Shown here piece by piece: positions 6,276 to 20,462 of a stretch of DNA of 25,653 nucleotides (positions within the stretch are counted from its first letter, which is position 1; every line of letters starts with the position of its first letter). The stretch is from an uncultured Candidatus Saccharibacteria bacterium (GTDB lineage Bacteria > Patescibacteriota > Minisyncoccia > Minisyncoccales > CG1-02-41-26), in assembly GCA_964403365.1 (NCBI GenBank), contig CAYOFM010000001.1:1-25653 (forward strand), given 5' to 3'. Under the pieces are notes generated by a model. The model was not told where the DNA came from and made no database searches. It saw nothing but the letters and a program-made list of their open reading frames with translations. A program made the translations under genes and the position numbers.

Positions 6276-6277
6276 TA

Positions 6278-6303
6278 GTTAGCTCTGATTGATTTAGAAG
6301 TTG
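6278..6303 (+). repeat. Direct repeat copy 2
   Basis: GTTAGCTCTGATTGATTTAGAAGTTG; 24/26 identical to 4816-4841. Confidence 0.9.
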
Positions 6304-6321
6304 GGAGGTTTGGAAAATAGT

Positions 6322-6356
6322 ACAGCCCAGGGTATCCATGTGATACTCTGGGCTGT
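6322..6356. terminator. Hairpin between convergent genes, probable intrinsic terminator
   Basis: ACAGCCCAG-G-GTATC-CATGT-GATAC-T-CTGGGCTGT; short T-tract (ACTATTTT) on the - strand. Confidence 0.65.
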
Positions 6357-6380
6357 TTAGTTGGGAGGTGTTGGGGTGTG

Positions 6381-6782
6381 TTAGACCCTGACAGTCTCCG
6401 GTTTGGGATTTTGCGAGGGGGCCGATATCTTGACTGATTTTTCCAGAATATCGACCATTTTGGCTATGATTGTTGTGACGGCGATGTCATGCAGTAGCGT
6501 GAGGCCGTCAGCATGCTTATTAAGCCACGTACCACAGTGTACTATATACAATGAGGTACCAGGTAGACTATTTCCCCAGCCTTTGCCTTGCGCAGCAATT
6601 CGCCCCAGCGTTTCATGTCTGAGGTGTGCTACTTTCGCATAGACAGTTGGAGCAATCTGCTGATACAGATCTTGAGCATCTATATGCAGTCCTTGCTCAT
6701 CAAGGGCGGAAGGATGAATATCAATACTACTGATAACATCCTCTGCAATGCGACGGACAAGGGACTTCTTCTTTTTTCCCAT
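6381..6782 (-). CDS. Hypothetical protein (133 aa), no family recognised
   Basis: AGGAGG 8 nt before the ATG, upstream sigma70-like promoter, downstream hairpin. Confidence 0.8.
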   Translation of the reverse strand: MGKKKKSLVRRIAEDVISSIDIHPSALDEQGLHIDAQDLYQQIAPTVYAKVAHLRHETLGRIAAQGKGWGNSLPGTSLYIVHCGTWLNKHADGLTLLHDIAVTTIIAKMVDILEKSVKISAPSQNPKPETVRV

Positions 6783-12592: not shown

Positions 12593-13846
12593 CTATAGGT
12601 AACGGAGTAGGATAAAGTTAACAATACCATTTAATAAATTATGGATAGTTATAGCAATGATCAATCCTAATAAGCCAAAGAAATAAAGAGATAAAAATAA
12701 AATTGATATTTTAATTACAGCCATTGAGATATTTTGCTTGTATAATATCTTTGTTCTTCTTTTAGCAGTAAAGGCAACACCAGGGATTAAGCCAATACCA
12801 CCTAAAAGATTAAGGGAATAAATACGTGAGTAAAGGATAGCCCCAGTATAAGTAGGAAAAAATATTTTAAAGATAAGTGGGCAGAATGCAATATAAAGAG
12901 CGACCATACTAGTTAGTAAAATAGCCCAAGGAACTGTTTTTGCGAAAGCAGTTTTTTTTATTTCTTGGGCACTTCTAGTAGATAGCTTAGGCAAAGCCAA
13001 TTGGCACATACTTTTAGTAACAGATTTTAAGTTGTCTGGCAGTATTGTAGCAAACGAATAAATAGCTAATTGAACAGCACCTACATAATGAAAGATAAGG
13101 ATTTTATCAATCTGCATTGCAACAAGATTTAGCACACCCATTAAACTTAAATGTTTGCCAAAAACAAGTGATGATTTATCAACACTATTTTCTTGTGATG
13201 GAATAGGGTCTTGTTTAAAAGTGATTACATAGAATAAAATACTTAAAATAGATCTTGATGAAAAATAGACAAGTACTAAATAAATAGTATTATTTGTTAG
13301 GATGATTACACTAGCAGTAATTAGGGCTGCTAAAAATCCTTTTGCTAAGTCTAATTTAGCTTTTAAAGAAAAGTTTTTTTTGCCTTCTAAATAACTAGTA
13401 TAAAGAGGGAAAGAATTAATAATAGGGGAGAGTAGGCCAGCGATTAAAAAAGATATAGATAAAGTAACATCTTGTTTAACCCAATAATAAACAGCTAGAG
13501 AGAGCCCTGCTAAAAGTGCCAGCATGCCCCAGCGAAGTCGTGCTTTAAGGGCTTGCTTAACTGTGCCGGCAAAGTTTCTGGCTACTGCTTGAGTAACAGC
13601 ACTTTTCATACCAGATAAAGAGAAGATGGCCAATAAAGAGGCAATAGAAAGAATAAATTTATACTGACCATAAACATCTTGAGGCACAAATCTTGCCCAA
13701 ATCATACCCATTGCTAAAGCAATCAATAAGGTTCCAAAGCGTGCCAAACTTAGCCAAAAACTACCTTTGGCGATATAAACATTATCGGTTTTGGTGTATT
13801 TCTCTGTTTTCCTTAAAAGATTGTAGACCTTTCCTTTAATTGGCAT
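12593..13846 (-). CDS. Wzx-type polysaccharide flippase (MOP family)
   Basis: Many TM segments; RFVPQDVYGQYKFILSIASL, QIDKILIFHYVGAVQLAIYSFA. Confidence 0.85.
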   Translation of the reverse strand: MPIKGKVYNLLRKTEKYTKTDNVYIAKGSFWLSLARFGTLLIALAMGMIWARFVPQDVYGQYKFILSIASLLAIFSLSGMKSAVTQAVARNFAGTVKQALKARLRWGMLALLAGLSLAVYYWVKQDVTLSISFLIAGLLSPIINSFPLYTSYLEGKKNFSLKAKLDLAKGFLAALITASVIILTNNTIYLVLVYFSSRSILSILFYVITFKQDPIPSQENSVDKSSLVFGKHLSLMGVLNLVAMQIDKILIFHYVGAVQLAIYSFATILPDNLKSVTKSMCQLALPKLSTRSAQEIKKTAFAKTVPWAILLTSMVALYIAFCPLIFKIFFPTYTGAILYSRIYSLNLLGGIGLIPGVAFTAKRRTKILYKQNISMAVIKISILFLSLYFFGLLGLIIAITIHNLLNGIVNFILLRYL

Positions 13847-15558
13847 TAGATTAGATTATTATTTTGTAAATATTCAATAACTTGTTCGGCACATTTCTCA
13901 ATGTTTTCATCTGTGTTGCTTGATGTATCTAAAATAATTTCTGCGTTTTCTGGTTTTTCATAAGGATCAGAAACACCAGTAAAGTTTTTGATTTCTCCTG
14001 ATCTGGCTTTAGCGTAAAGCCCTTTTGCATCACGCTTTTCACAAACCTTAAGCGGGCATTTGCAATATACTTCTATAAAGTTTTCTACCTTATCTCTAAC
14101 ACCATCTCTTTGATGTTTATACGGAGAAATAAAAGAAGCGAGTACTCCTACTCCGTTTTTAGCTAGCATTTTAGCTACAAAACCAATCCTTTTAATATTT
14201 TCATCCCTATCTTCTTTGGAAAAGCCAAGATCTTTGGTTAATGTTTGGCGAACTATATCTCCATCTAATCTTTCAATATGTTGATTACTTTGTTTAAGTT
14301 TCTCTGAAACTTTGTCAGCCACTGTTGTTTTACCGCTACCTGATAAACCAGTGAACCATAAAATAAATCCTTTTTTATTATTAGAGTTTTTATGCATATT
14401 ATATTTATTATCTACTAATGGATTGTGGCTGTTAGCTAAAAAGTTATAAATCTCAGGTCTCATAACATAAGAGGGGATTGGCGTTTTATTTAAAATAGCT
14501 TGCCTAATTTTAGTACCACTAAATGATTCTTGATTTTTTGAGCAGTCTGGACAATCGTTTTCAAAAACGTGAGAGTTACAAGTATGACACCAAACTACAT
14601 TTTTAAACTTCAATATCTCGACACCGATTTCATCTGGCTTAAATTGATTAAAAATCTCTTGGGCATCAAATGGACCATAGAAATCTCCCACACCAGCATG
14701 GTCTCTACCCACAATAAAGTGAGTGCAACCAAAGTTTTTTCTGATTAAAGCATGCAGTACTGCTTCTCTTGGTCCAGCATACCTCATTTTTAAAGGCAAG
14801 ATACCCAACACCACCTTATTCTCAGGAAAAAAGTTTTTAATCAAGAGTTGGTAAGATGCTATGATAAATTCATCCTTAAAATCAGTTAGTTTTTTTTCAC
14901 CAATCACTGGCTGGATAAATAATCCGTCAGTTTGTTTTAGGGCCTGTTTCTGTAAAAACTCGTGTCCTTGGTGAGGCACATTTCTAGTTTGAAAAGCTGC
15001 AACCGTGTCCCAACCATTTTTTTTAAATAACCCTCTGGTTTCCTTTGGTGTTAAATCATAATCAGAAAAAGGTGTTTGGTCATGGATAAGCCAGGTATCT
15101 CCACCAATTAAATAATCTTTCATTTTAAAAACATTGGCTACTCCTGGGTGGTTTTGGTCGGTAGTACCAAATACATTTTTGGCAAAGCTATTTTTATCAT
15201 AACTAAATATCTCAAAGTTTTCTAGAATAGCGATTGGTTGGCTATCGTCAGATACAAGTAACACCTGTTTTTCATTTTTTATTTTCTGTTTTTCTGTTTC
15301 AGAAATATCTAAAACAATTGGCACAGACCAAACAACCCCGTTAGCCAAGCGCATATCTTTAACCACAGAACTAAAGTCACTTTTTTTCAAGAAACCAGTA
15401 AGAGGGGAATAGACCCCGTGGGCAATGTTTCTTACATCAACTGTTCTTTCTTTATCTAAAACCAGGACCTTTAATTGGTCCTTTTGCGCTAAGATATTCT
15501 GTTTTTTATCTTCATCAAGAACTCTATCAATAAGTTCTCCGCCGTGTGGTTTAATCAT
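13846..15558 (-). CDS. sat-cysC: Bifunctional sulfate adenylyltransferase / APS kinase (Sat-CysC, PAPS synthase)
   Basis: Start MIKPHGGEL at 15558 (not 15606); FQTRNVPHQGHE, MRYAGPREA, VGRDHAGVG; kinase half WFTGLSGSGKTT, LDGDIVR, RDAKGLY. Confidence 0.95.
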   Translation of the reverse strand: MIKPHGGELIDRVLDEDKKQNILAQKDQLKVLVLDKERTVDVRNIAHGVYSPLTGFLKKSDFSSVVKDMRLANGVVWSVPIVLDISETEKQKIKNEKQVLLVSDDSQPIAILENFEIFSYDKNSFAKNVFGTTDQNHPGVANVFKMKDYLIGGDTWLIHDQTPFSDYDLTPKETRGLFKKNGWDTVAAFQTRNVPHQGHEFLQKQALKQTDGLFIQPVIGEKKLTDFKDEFIIASYQLLIKNFFPENKVVLGILPLKMRYAGPREAVLHALIRKNFGCTHFIVGRDHAGVGDFYGPFDAQEIFNQFKPDEIGVEILKFKNVVWCHTCNSHVFENDCPDCSKNQESFSGTKIRQAILNKTPIPSYVMRPEIYNFLANSHNPLVDNKYNMHKNSNNKKGFILWFTGLSGSGKTTVADKVSEKLKQSNQHIERLDGDIVRQTLTKDLGFSKEDRDENIKRIGFVAKMLAKNGVGVLASFISPYKHQRDGVRDKVENFIEVYCKCPLKVCEKRDAKGLYAKARSGEIKNFTGVSDPYEKPENAEIILDTSSNTDENIEKCAEQVIEYLQNNNLI

Positions 15559-15572
15559 ATATGTTATGTGGG

Positions 15573-15753
15573 GTGTAGGGGGGAGGGCATTTGCCGAAGG
15601 GGGCACTGCGCAGACGCACTCACTGAGAATAATAAACTATTATTGAACTTAGGAAGTGCGTCGAGCAAAGCCACATCCGTAACTGTATTTTAATTTATTT
15701 CTTTAGGATAGTGGCGGGTCCCCTGAGGCAAATGACCCGAACCTCTCTAACGC
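15573..15753 (+). other. GC-rich Y-shaped structured element filling the frr-sat spacer (ncRNA or ssDNA/MITE-like)
   Basis: About 30-bp interrupted closing stem plus two internal hairpins, with several G.T pairs on the + strand. Confidence 0.6.
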
Positions 15754-15755
15754 GT

Positions 15756-16313
15756 CTATCCTTTAATCTCAACCTCTTTATTCTTAACCATTTCTTCCAT
15801 TTTGTCTCTATACTCACGAACCATTTCATCTAACTTATCTTTACCCTTAAACTTATCATCTTCTCTTATCTCTCCTTTAGTAAACCCGTCCTGTACTGAT
15901 TTCCACATCTTATCCCGTAAATGCCTAACAACTTGAAAAGCCTCTTCTTTCTTTTTATTTAACACGCGTACTAAATTAGCCCTGCTTTCTTCTGTTAGTG
16001 ACGGTGAAGTAAGATAAACTTTTTCTCCATCTATTCTTACTGATAAGCCAAGACCTGCTTTTTCAATAGCTCCAACAGCACCCTCTATATAACTCTTATC
16101 CCACAGTTGAATTAGTAGCTCTTTAGATGAGCCAGAGGTAATCGCCCCTAATTGCTTCATGGGCAAAATAGAGCCAAAACAATCTACCTTTATATCTTCT
16201 ACTAAGGCTGGAGATAACCGCCCACTACGCAGTTTCATCATCTCATCTTTAAACTCTTCCTGTACTTTCTCTAACTCTGGTTTTAAATTGTCTAAAATTG
16301 ATTGATAACTCAT
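15756..16313 (-). CDS. frr: Ribosome recycling factor
   Basis: KLRSGRLSPALVEDIKVDCFG, PSLTEESR, GEIREDD. Confidence 0.95.
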   Translation of the reverse strand: MSYQSILDNLKPELEKVQEEFKDEMMKLRSGRLSPALVEDIKVDCFGSILPMKQLGAITSGSSKELLIQLWDKSYIEGAVGAIEKAGLGLSVRIDGEKVYLTSPSLTEESRANLVRVLNKKKEEAFQVVRHLRDKMWKSVQDGFTKGEIREDDKFKGKDKLDEMVREYRDKMEEMVKNKEVEIKG

Positions 16314-18068: not shown

Positions 18069-18223
18069 GCAGGTACGAGGGAGTCCTCTTGTATCGGCGT
18101 CTCGCAGGCGAATGAGCATGGTCCCCAAGGTAATCCGAGGGGTCATTCGCCGAGAGCCGAGCAGCGACTAACGGCTGGGTTAGTCGACTGCGTACGATAC
18201 AAGAGGACTACCCGAGTGCCTGC
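18069..18223 (+). other. GC-rich Y-shaped structured element in the murA-mreB spacer (ncRNA or MITE-like)
   Basis: Closing stem with a perfect 15-bp segment AGTCCTCTTGTATCG/CGATACAAGAGGACT, plus two internal hairpins. Confidence 0.7.
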
Positions 18224-18230
18224 CATCCGA

Positions 18231-19566: not shown

Positions 19567-19605
19567 AAAGGACGGTTGGGAAAATGGTTTTCCCTTCCGT
19601 CCTTT
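19567..19605 (-). terminator. Intrinsic terminator of the dockerin gene
   Basis: - strand: AAAGGACGG-AA-GGGAAAA-CCA-TTTTCCC-AA-CCGTCCTTT followed by ATTTT. Confidence 0.75.
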
Positions 19606-19619
19606 TGTACCTTTTGGCT

Positions 19620-20462
19620 TCATCTCTTTTTTATGCCACCCCAAGTTATGGGTAGCCTATTCTGCTGGCTACGCTCACTATCGTGAGCGTCAGTGAGCAA
19701 ATTAAGAACATCCTCTTCTATCTGCTCACTAGCCAACAAATCATCCACCAATTCTTCAAATGATAGTGGATTCTTGGCTGGCGCCCCTTTCCCATCATAG
19801 GTCGGGAACTCGAAAATAATACCTGCTGAATATTGTAAAATCAGCATAGCATCACGGGTAGTCACTCCTCCAAGACCTGTGACATCAGCTCGTACCCATT
19901 CTTCTGATGTCAATTCTTCAGTCCCCAAGACGTGCAACAATATCATCACAGCATCTTGGGACGAAATCATACCATCAGCGTTGATATCGCCAATCTCGGG
20001 TATTATCTCAAAAACAATACCCTCTGTTTTCCCACCAAGCACCAACAAGTTAGCACCCTCGGGTTCAGGCCAACCATTAATCAACACTTTTTTAAACACT
20101 ATGTCAACAGGTCCACAGTAGTGTTTAATATTAAGCTTGAAAAAAATGGCTGGTTCAACTAATGGCGTTGCCCCTGTGGCAACAATTTTAATTAAACCAT
20201 CTTGGACTGACCAAACATAGAACCAGTCCTCAAAACCACCAGCTGGTTCTACTACATAAAATGGCGGCATCGTCGCTTGCGCCACTTTAACTTCAATTTC
20301 AAGGTCAAGTGAGCCAATCGCCCGATCTGGGTTCACCATCAAGTTTACCCCTTCTCCTTGAATAGCAAACCAAAACACTGGATCGCCACCTGCTGCAAAA
20401 ACAACAGAGGACAGGACCAAAAACACCATAATCGTCGCACAGATTCCCAAATTCTTCTTCAT
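19620..20462 (-). CDS. Secreted protein with a cohesin-like beta domain, a type I dockerin and a C-terminal TWGGIKKR motif
   Basis: Signal peptide ending SSVVFA; dockerin repeats GDINADGMISSQDAVMILLHVLG and ADVTGLGGVTTRDAMLILQYSAG; AAGGAG SD. Confidence 0.85.
   Translation of the reverse strand: MKKNLGICATIMVFLVLSSVVFAAGGDPVFWFAIQGEGVNLMVNPDRAIGSLDLEIEVKVAQATMPPFYVVEPAGGFEDWFYVWSVQDGLIKIVATGATPLVEPAIFFKLNIKHYCGPVDIVFKKVLINGWPEPEGANLLVLGGKTEGIVFEIIPEIGDINADGMISSQDAVMILLHVLGTEELTSEEWVRADVTGLGGVTTRDAMLILQYSAGIIFEFPTYDGKGAPAKNPLSFEELVDDLLASEQIEEDVLNLLTDAHDSERSQQNRLPITWGGIKKR

Follow-up and report, generated by a model that had tools for sequence, protein, structure and literature searches.

What is the folded element between the frr and sat genes of this bacterium, and does it belong to either of them? 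The window, meaning the whole 25,653-nt stretch of DNA that was analysed, comes from an uncultured Candidatus Saccharibacteria bacterium (contig CAYOFM010000001.1 of assembly GCA_964403365.1). Its frr-sat spacer is 197 nt long and is filled by a Y-shaped element on the + strand (15573-15753), while both genes are read from the - strand. A gap of 2 nt separates the 3′ end of the element from the frr stop codon (15756-58), and one of 14 nt separates its 5′ end from the ATG of sat (15558). The two genes, the element and its parts are as follows.

13846..15558, - strand: sat-cysC fusion, ATP sulfurylase plus APS kinase (ORF and Pfam)
15573..15753, + strand: whole Y element, the core called type A (minimum-free-energy fold; covariance models R1 and R2)
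15573..15583, + strand: 5′ half of the outer stem, pairing with 15742-15753, where A15749 is unpaired in the 3′ half
15585..15604, + strand: 5′ strand of the conserved rod, GGG-CAUUUGCC, tandem GA at 15596-97, then AGGGGGC
15607..15667, + strand: arm 1, with a 3-bp closing helix (15607-09 with 15665-67)
15670..15715, + strand: arm 2, a helix (15670-78 with 15706-15; A15710 bulged) that carries a large AT-rich loop
15718..15738, + strand: 3′ strand of the conserved rod, GUCCCCU, tandem GA at 15725-26, GGCAAAUG, bulged A15735, then CCC
15756..16313, - strand: frr, ribosome recycling factor (ORF and Pfam RRF)

The minimum-free-energy fold was computed on 15561-15755, and the helix coordinates were checked by script. 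The + strand folds into a three-way junction of -86.0 kcal/mol (z = -7.85), and none of 200 shuffled sequences folds as well. In the rod, 15585-15595 pairs with 15727-15738, leaving A15735 bulged, and 15598-15604 pairs with 15718-15724; the tandem G.A mismatch between the two helices is formed by 15596-97 opposite 15725-26. Above its closing helix, arm 1 (15613-15662) has a helix of 15613-20 with 15655-62 and then an AT-rich variable tip. The internal loop GCA/GA of arm 1 (15610-12 and 15663-64) is a CG(C)AG/CGAG motif and thus makes a second purine loop. The - strand fold is weaker (-62.1 kcal/mol, z = -4.93). A first-pass annotation of the DNA, made from the letters, had described a Y-shaped fold for 15573-15753 that is better on the + strand. 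Every helix that it named is present in the computed fold, and the folding of both strands bears out its choice of strand. It had also counted about five G.T pairs; such G.U pairs do occur in the + fold of the frr-sat copy, but they make up 7 of the 63 pairs. The annotation had recognised no RNA family in the element, in agreement with Rfam, which gave zero matches to the window at gathering scores, nothing relevant to 15400-15900 at E <= 10, and nothing at E <= 1 for seven other members of the family described below. Contigs from four independent salt-lake metagenome runs span the element with 0 or 1 difference. The only variants across these runs, at thin coverage, are the SNP 15649 T>C, which turns a G.U pair into a G-C pair, and a one-base deletion in a loop.

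Is this element found in other genomes? A BLASTN search of 195 nt against 60 relatives gave matches of 20-30 nt only, and the loci behind these short matches have the same architecture with different arm sequences. The building of a covariance model, which had been suggested as a check, was more productive. A model made from four sequences (R1) finds 1-11 copies each in 8 of the 39 genomes of the same family, and a model made from 37 copies (R2) is positive in 35 of the 151 genomes sampled from the order, which have between 1 and at least 18 copies each. When 151 genomes from the whole phylum were sampled, R2 was positive in only one genome outside the order. The carriers include, by record name, Candidatus Gribaldobacteria and Nealsonbacteria MAGs. 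The frr-sat element itself is matched by R1 and R2 over 15578-15746 with 153 and 113 bits, respectively. As judged from these model matches, the family is multi-copy, patchy, and nearly confined to one Patescibacteria order. It is a conserved structured element that is absent from Rfam.

In the alignment of 37 copies, standard pairs are found in 97% of the cells and double changes at 27 of 35 pairs, including 3/4 and 5/8 pairs in arm 1 and 6/8 pairs in arm 2. None of 500 shuffles reaches the real level of covariation, and slid controls pair at about 40%. Fitting the alignment to the model biases it towards the structure, but the effect is far beyond that bias, and covariation is already apparent in an unfitted MAFFT alignment. 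The identity among copies is 77% within a genome and 61% between genomes. By this measure the copies cluster by genome, being closer to their genome-mates than to copies elsewhere. A divergent SRP, 6S or RNase P RNA was also considered. It is excluded because the element is multi-copy with variable arms, and the RNase P RNA sits elsewhere, on contig C45 of the window's genome. The match on C45 is short and scores 55.7 bits, below the Rfam cut-off, and SRP and 6S RNA have no bacterial match at E <= 1 in this genome, which is 90% complete.

Which strand is seen by selection? The + strand is the stabler one in 31 of 37 type-A copies (mean -77.8 vs. -70.8 kcal/mol) and in all five copies of the type C described below. 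Among the pairs of the + strand, G.U pairs outnumber A.C pairs 48 to 17. The invariant or nearly invariant unpaired bases are all purines (G40, A43, A113, A165, G170, G179, and A180). G40, A43, and A113, all three in arm 1, and G179 and A180 belong to Y-GA-R/Y-GA-R mismatches, typically CGAG opposite CGAG; at these tandem G.A sites, the opposite strand has tandem U.C mismatches. G179 and A180, on the 3′ side of the rod (alignment A6), are invariant in 37/37 copies, while the GA columns on its 5′ side hold G in 26/37 and A in 32/37. The bulged A of arm 2 is kept in 35/37 copies. The covariation, the invariant purine motifs, and the strand asymmetry in stability and in G.U pairs thus provide good evidence for selection on the core in single-stranded form, namely on the + strand, either as RNA or as ssDNA. 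Selection on a single strand had been proposed by the first-pass annotation from the G.T pairs, and this proposal is upheld.

The window's genome has one type A copy and at least five type C copies. R1 and R2 detect only the frr-sat copy in this genome, and the type C copies were found by a fold scan of all its GC-rich 170-nt windows.

18069..18225 of the window, + strand: second Y element, of type C, between murA and mreB (169 bits with the type C model R3)
C11:9358-9513 of the window's genome: type C (fold scan)
C19:6931-7087 of the window's genome: type C (fold scan)
C63:3379-3547 of the window's genome: type C (fold scan)
C67:3433-3590 of the window's genome: type C (fold scan)

The element at 18069-18225 has the same junction as type A and likewise lies antisense and after a stop codon. 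Each of the five type C copies is antisense to the gene whose end it adjoins, and the copies are about 80% identical among themselves. Types A and C have in common the junction words (UCUCGCAG, an arm, CGAGAG, and GCAGCG...CGACUGCG) and one CGAG/CGAG module, while the rod of type C differs. R3 is positive in 7 of the 39 family genomes, mostly other than the type A carriers. A third form, type B, has the type-A rod and a different interior. Since the types have some parts in common and differ in others, the family is modular. A repeated gene of 499 aa beside the type-B copies turned out to be an artefact of locus truncation.

Has the element always been next to frr? Among 30 relatives, most have an frr spacer of 0-75 nt, and the next gene is usually a conserved one of about 362 aa; none of the 30 has a Y element in the frr spacer. 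In the window's genome, frr is followed by sat-cysC and then by a glycan gene block. Since the next gene here is sat-cysC rather than the usual one and the frr spacer of the relatives is short, the frr-sat copy lies at a synteny break and is lineage-specific. An ancient conserved element linked to frr is ruled out by the same short spacers. The frr-sat copy is also the most divergent type A copy, with 59% identity to its nearest relative, and all of its helices are intact.

Where do the other copies lie? In 35 of the 41 copies with a readable ORF (about 85%), the gene on the 3′ side is on the opposite strand and its stop codon is 0-30 nt away. Copies with both neighbours on the opposite strand number 28, and those with both on the same strand number 5. 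The antisense placement after a stop codon applies to 12 of 16 copies in genome G144 and to 4/4 type-C copies of the window's genome. The copies are not mutually independent, so these counts overstate the statistics, but the direction of the bias is consistent. The neighbours include L23|L2, S2, EF-Ts, MraZ|MraW, rpoC, SecA, PGK, enolase, GAPDH, RRF, and LigA. A common regulon was looked for among these flanking genes and discarded, their housekeeping functions being unrelated. A consensus scan found neither a + strand promoter nor a terminator, nor a terminator-like U tract, at the frr-sat element or at the 18069-18225 element. The 5′ flanks are unrelated between copies and usually lie in, or by the start of, a gene on the opposite strand; thus, no conserved promoter belongs to the element.

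Just 5′ of many naked copies (cores that lack the terminal repeats described below), a conserved AT-rich module (CCCTACGAATTAC ... TACGAATATACGAATAA) was found in different genera (L017:1400-1500, L022:1400-1500, L014, L029, L032, L162, L173, L174, and L175), sometimes joined by a GC hairpin. This module may be part of a composite repeat or the promoter of the next gene.

In at least four genomes (G073, G094, G144, and G150), the Y core is the cargo of a MITE. These MITEs are 235-260 bp long, with inverted repeats of about 27 bp (TGTA...GTAAC) and AT-rich target duplications of 7-9 bp. G073 has eight copies that are 97-100% identical, and their repeat unit reaches about 29 nt past the core on each side, to the inverted repeats. 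Perfect 8-bp duplications were found in G073 (TTTAATTT, ATTTATTT, and CATAAATT), and the duplications in G150 and G094 are GGTATGATT and TCTATAGC, respectively; those in G144 are TTTTGTT and GATTATA. The four genomes have common MITE ends, with 5′ TGTACTA..CTAACCAcTTcAGTAAC and an inverted partner ending in TACA. The repeat motif occurs 33-62 times per genome, as compared with 11-17 times for a reversed control pattern. In G144 (L114-L129), the Y core is present in both orientations within asymmetric MITE ends. The switch point lies in the perfect part of the rod, indicating an inversion between the rod's own inverted repeats. Two congeneric species have orthologous MITE copies that are 85% identical, vs. 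93% in the coding flanks, and one of the two copies has broken helices. Thus, individual copies can decay.

What mobilises these MITEs? Variants with the same ends include a 130-bp element that has lost most of the core, one that carries other GC-rich cargo, and a 530-bp element with the decayed C-terminal motif of an rve-type (IS481/IS3) transposase, interrupted by stop codons. A Gribaldobacteria genome of the same bacterial family (G003) has an IS481-family IS (HTH_32, rve, and rve_3) with 30-bp ends, which share 19 of 27 positions with the MITE repeat; the MITE ends start with TGT and finish with ACA. A Y core would not fit into this compact IS; the core is therefore cargo and not one of the IS ends. 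The MITEs resemble deletion derivatives of an IS481-family IS, from which the frr-sat copy differs in having no such ends, and no intact IS with ends matching the MITE was found in 30 rve loci. As a partner that might track the element, the rve transposase was rejected, because 9 genomes have both where 7 are expected (151 genomes), which is not above chance. A Y1/RAYT transposase was rejected as well for want of co-occurrence: Y1_Tnp is present in 21 of the 39 family genomes and absent from the carriers G003, G012, G036, G026, G032, and G006, and G003 has 11 copies of the element and no Y1_Tnp match.

In most carrier genomes, the window's included, the cores are naked, that is, without inverted repeats or short duplications. 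This is so in G003, G007, G012, G032, and G036, as well as in twelve other genomes sampled across the order and in the single positive genome outside it. In the flanks of the frr-sat copy, the family repeat CTAACCAnTTnnGTAAC has no match with up to 4 mismatches, and the longest flanking direct repeat is 8 nt, vs. up to 11 nt in shuffled sequences. A TTTAATC at 15550-56 and 15762-68 lies within the sat and frr coding sequences and is no longer than expected by chance. Among 48 naked copies, no short target duplications were found above shuffled controls. The only exceptions are three long direct repeats:

G082, 62 bp: rebuilds the 5′ end of fusA
G082, 37 bp: rebuilds the 3′ end of rpoC
G093, 32 bp exact and about 45 bp by eye: rebuilds the 3′ end of a dehydrogenase gene

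At these loci (L170 and L169 of G082 and L176 of G093), the element separates an intact gene from a stub. Such long duplications of 32-62 bp are not a product of a DDE transposase. Young naked pairs were found in G003 (93-95% identical) and in G118 (near-identical rod ends, only the termini being read), and the sequence shared within these pairs begins at the very first base of the rod and stops at its last. In some cases, naked copies of different genera fill an equivalent gene junction (two pairs, with both flanks homologous), yet each of them is closer to its genome-mates than to its positional counterpart. This suggests that the few permissive sites have been hit repeatedly or that old copies have undergone gene conversion with one another.

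The family has much in common with the foldable MITEs of other bacteria, such as Correia/NEMIS of Neisseria, ERIC/IRU of enterobacteria, and RUP/BOX of Streptococcus pneumoniae. These are likewise non-coding, multi-copy, intergenic elements of about 170-260 bp that form a long imperfect palindrome and cluster by genome, and their terminal inverted repeats and target duplications of fixed size have counterparts in four Y-carrying genomes. In contrast, what the Y family conserves is not the termini but an internal three-way junction, with invariant purines and tandem G.A motifs specific to one strand, and most of its copies, including that at frr-sat, lack inverted repeats and duplications. Moreover, the Y core can be inverted within the repeat frame and has a strong tendency to lie antisense directly after a stop codon.

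On balance, the frr-sat element probably does not regulate frr or sat and is a naked copy of a structured mobile repeat that is selfish or neutral. A role of its own in the frr-sat spacer, in the manner of a riboswitch or another locus-specific RNA, was implied by the first-pass annotation. This implication has to be given up in view of a dispersed, multi-copy repeat that lies beside unrelated housekeeping genes, that nearly all relatives lack in their frr spacer, and whose core sits in some genomes within a MITE bounded by inverted repeats and target duplications. The family would spread, at least in part, through trans-mobilisation by an IS481-type DDE transposase. After landing by a stop codon, a copy may have lost its inverted repeats, or may never have had them, while the core persisted. 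The orientation bias could arise from selection against a stable, G.A-rich + strand in an operon transcript or in an exposed replication template. The selection on the core as a single strand would then most simply serve the propagation or the tolerance of the repeat rather than the regulation of frr or sat. Several observations do not sit easily with a mobile repeat: the frr-sat copy has no recognisable inverted repeat or flanking repeat beyond chance, rve transposases are not distributed like the element, an intact IS with matching ends did not turn up, some naked copies share a gene junction across genera, and DDE transposition is seen in a minority of the family, most genomes having naked cores only, without short duplications. 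In addition, a copy that is structurally perfect at 59% identity fits purifying selection in place, as for a host function, and a plain MITE would not normally have invariant unpaired purines.

Could the Y core be a self-standing, mobile or functional single-strand module (RNA or ssDNA) that spreads without IS481-type ends and became the cargo of MITEs later? I consider this unlikely, though worth keeping in mind. Such a module might be moved by a hairpin-directed recombinase or inserted by a reverse transcriptase in the manner of a SINE, with long and variable target duplications. If this were so, the core would constitute a new kind of non-autonomous element in bacteria, or else a new ribozyme or protein-binding RNA that such an element has spread.

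The placement of the copies raises another possibility, that of a domesticated cis element. Here the reverse complement would form a hairpin in the operon transcript after the stop codon and act, in the manner of REP/BIME or ERIC sequences, as a barrier at the 3′ end, a processing site, or an insulator between cistrons. Such an element would need no promoter of its own, and it would account for the 35/41 copies lying 0-30 nt past a stop codon, for the copies within read-through operons (L23|L2 and MraZ|MraW), and for the same junctions being filled across genera; the - strand also folds strongly (z = -4.9; mean -70.8 kcal/mol). However, the strand signals favour the other strand (G.U 48 vs. 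A.C 17; + stabler in 31/37), and in the mRNA the conserved GA/GA mismatches become UC/UC. Furthermore, most relatives manage without the element after frr, orthologous MITE copies decay, and there is no terminator-like U tract. Domestication is thus a minority explanation with a rather low probability. The known REP/BIME repeats with their RAYT (Y1) transposases are similar in being GC-rich, palindromic, and intergenic and in lying just past stop codons with an orientation bias. The Y element is different in that it is branched and about 170 nt long, vs. 20-40 nt for a REP hairpin, and in that Y1_Tnp genes are absent from the genomes richest in Y elements, e.g., G003.

In integrons, the bottom strand of attC is the one that folds, and it is antisense to the gene whose stop codon it adjoins. 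The folded + strand of the Y element might by analogy be an ssDNA substrate of a recombinase or a reverse transcriptase, with the naked cores moving apart from the IS481-type MITE. It has strand-specific mismatches and bulges on a near-perfect palindrome and is antisense to the adjoining gene end just as the attC bottom strands are. The naked copies are sharp-ended and without short duplications, and in three of them the target gene has its end rebuilt by flanking duplications of 32-62 bp. The likeness to attC, and to the forked hairpin of the CTX phage attP, which are also imperfect palindromes with strand-defining mismatches and bulges and a folding strand antisense to the end of the adjoining ORF, is a resemblance in design only. 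The attC motifs RYYYAAC ... GTTRRRY, that is, the R″/R′ core motifs, are absent from both strands of 15559-15755, and the neighbours of the Y elements are essential housekeeping genes and not cassettes. No candidate enzyme was found, Y1/HUH transposases do not co-occur with the element, the long duplications were seen three times only, and sharp boundaries could also result from gene conversion among old copies. An ssDNA substrate of this kind is accordingly a doubtful reading with a slim chance.

That the + strand acts in trans as an sRNA or a ribozyme, with the junction and the tandem G.A as its protein-binding or catalytic core, is very improbable: the strong covariation in every helix, local arms included, the seven invariant or nearly invariant unpaired purines, the + strand bias, and the absence of an Rfam family would suit it, but the unrelated 5′ flanks offer no conserved promoter of the element, the copies cluster by genome and number up to at least 18 in 1-Mb genomes, and forms with inverted repeats and target duplications exist.

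If the element is a mobile repeat, as favoured here, what does it mean? The Patescibacteria genomes are among the smallest and most streamlined, yet they may hold at least 18 copies of a branched repeat of 170 nt between essential genes, for instance those of ribosomal proteins, rpoC, and secA. GC-rich folded islands should not automatically be annotated as riboswitches or small RNAs of the adjoining gene. The family is an unusually clear case of a mobile repeat in which the inner fold, and not the ends, is conserved, as seen in the compensatory changes, the invariant purines, and the strand preference. If the core is active by itself, it would represent a new class of structured nucleic acid. 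If it has no activity of its own, selection on selfish elements can mimic the covariation signature of a functional RNA.

Other structured repeats may be present in the same genome. A different family of GC-rich palindromes was found at C28:6020-6230, C37:3310-3510, and C43:3650-3870 (genome G000, that of the window), whose nested hairpins are based on such words as GACGAGGGCAGCCCTCGTC and GACAAGGGCAGCCCTTGTC. Within the window, two further GC-richer regions fold better on one strand, namely 6276-6470 on the + strand (-64.6 vs. -49.4 kcal/mol per 170 nt) and 19576-19820 on the - strand (-71.4 vs. -53.3 kcal/mol per 170 nt).
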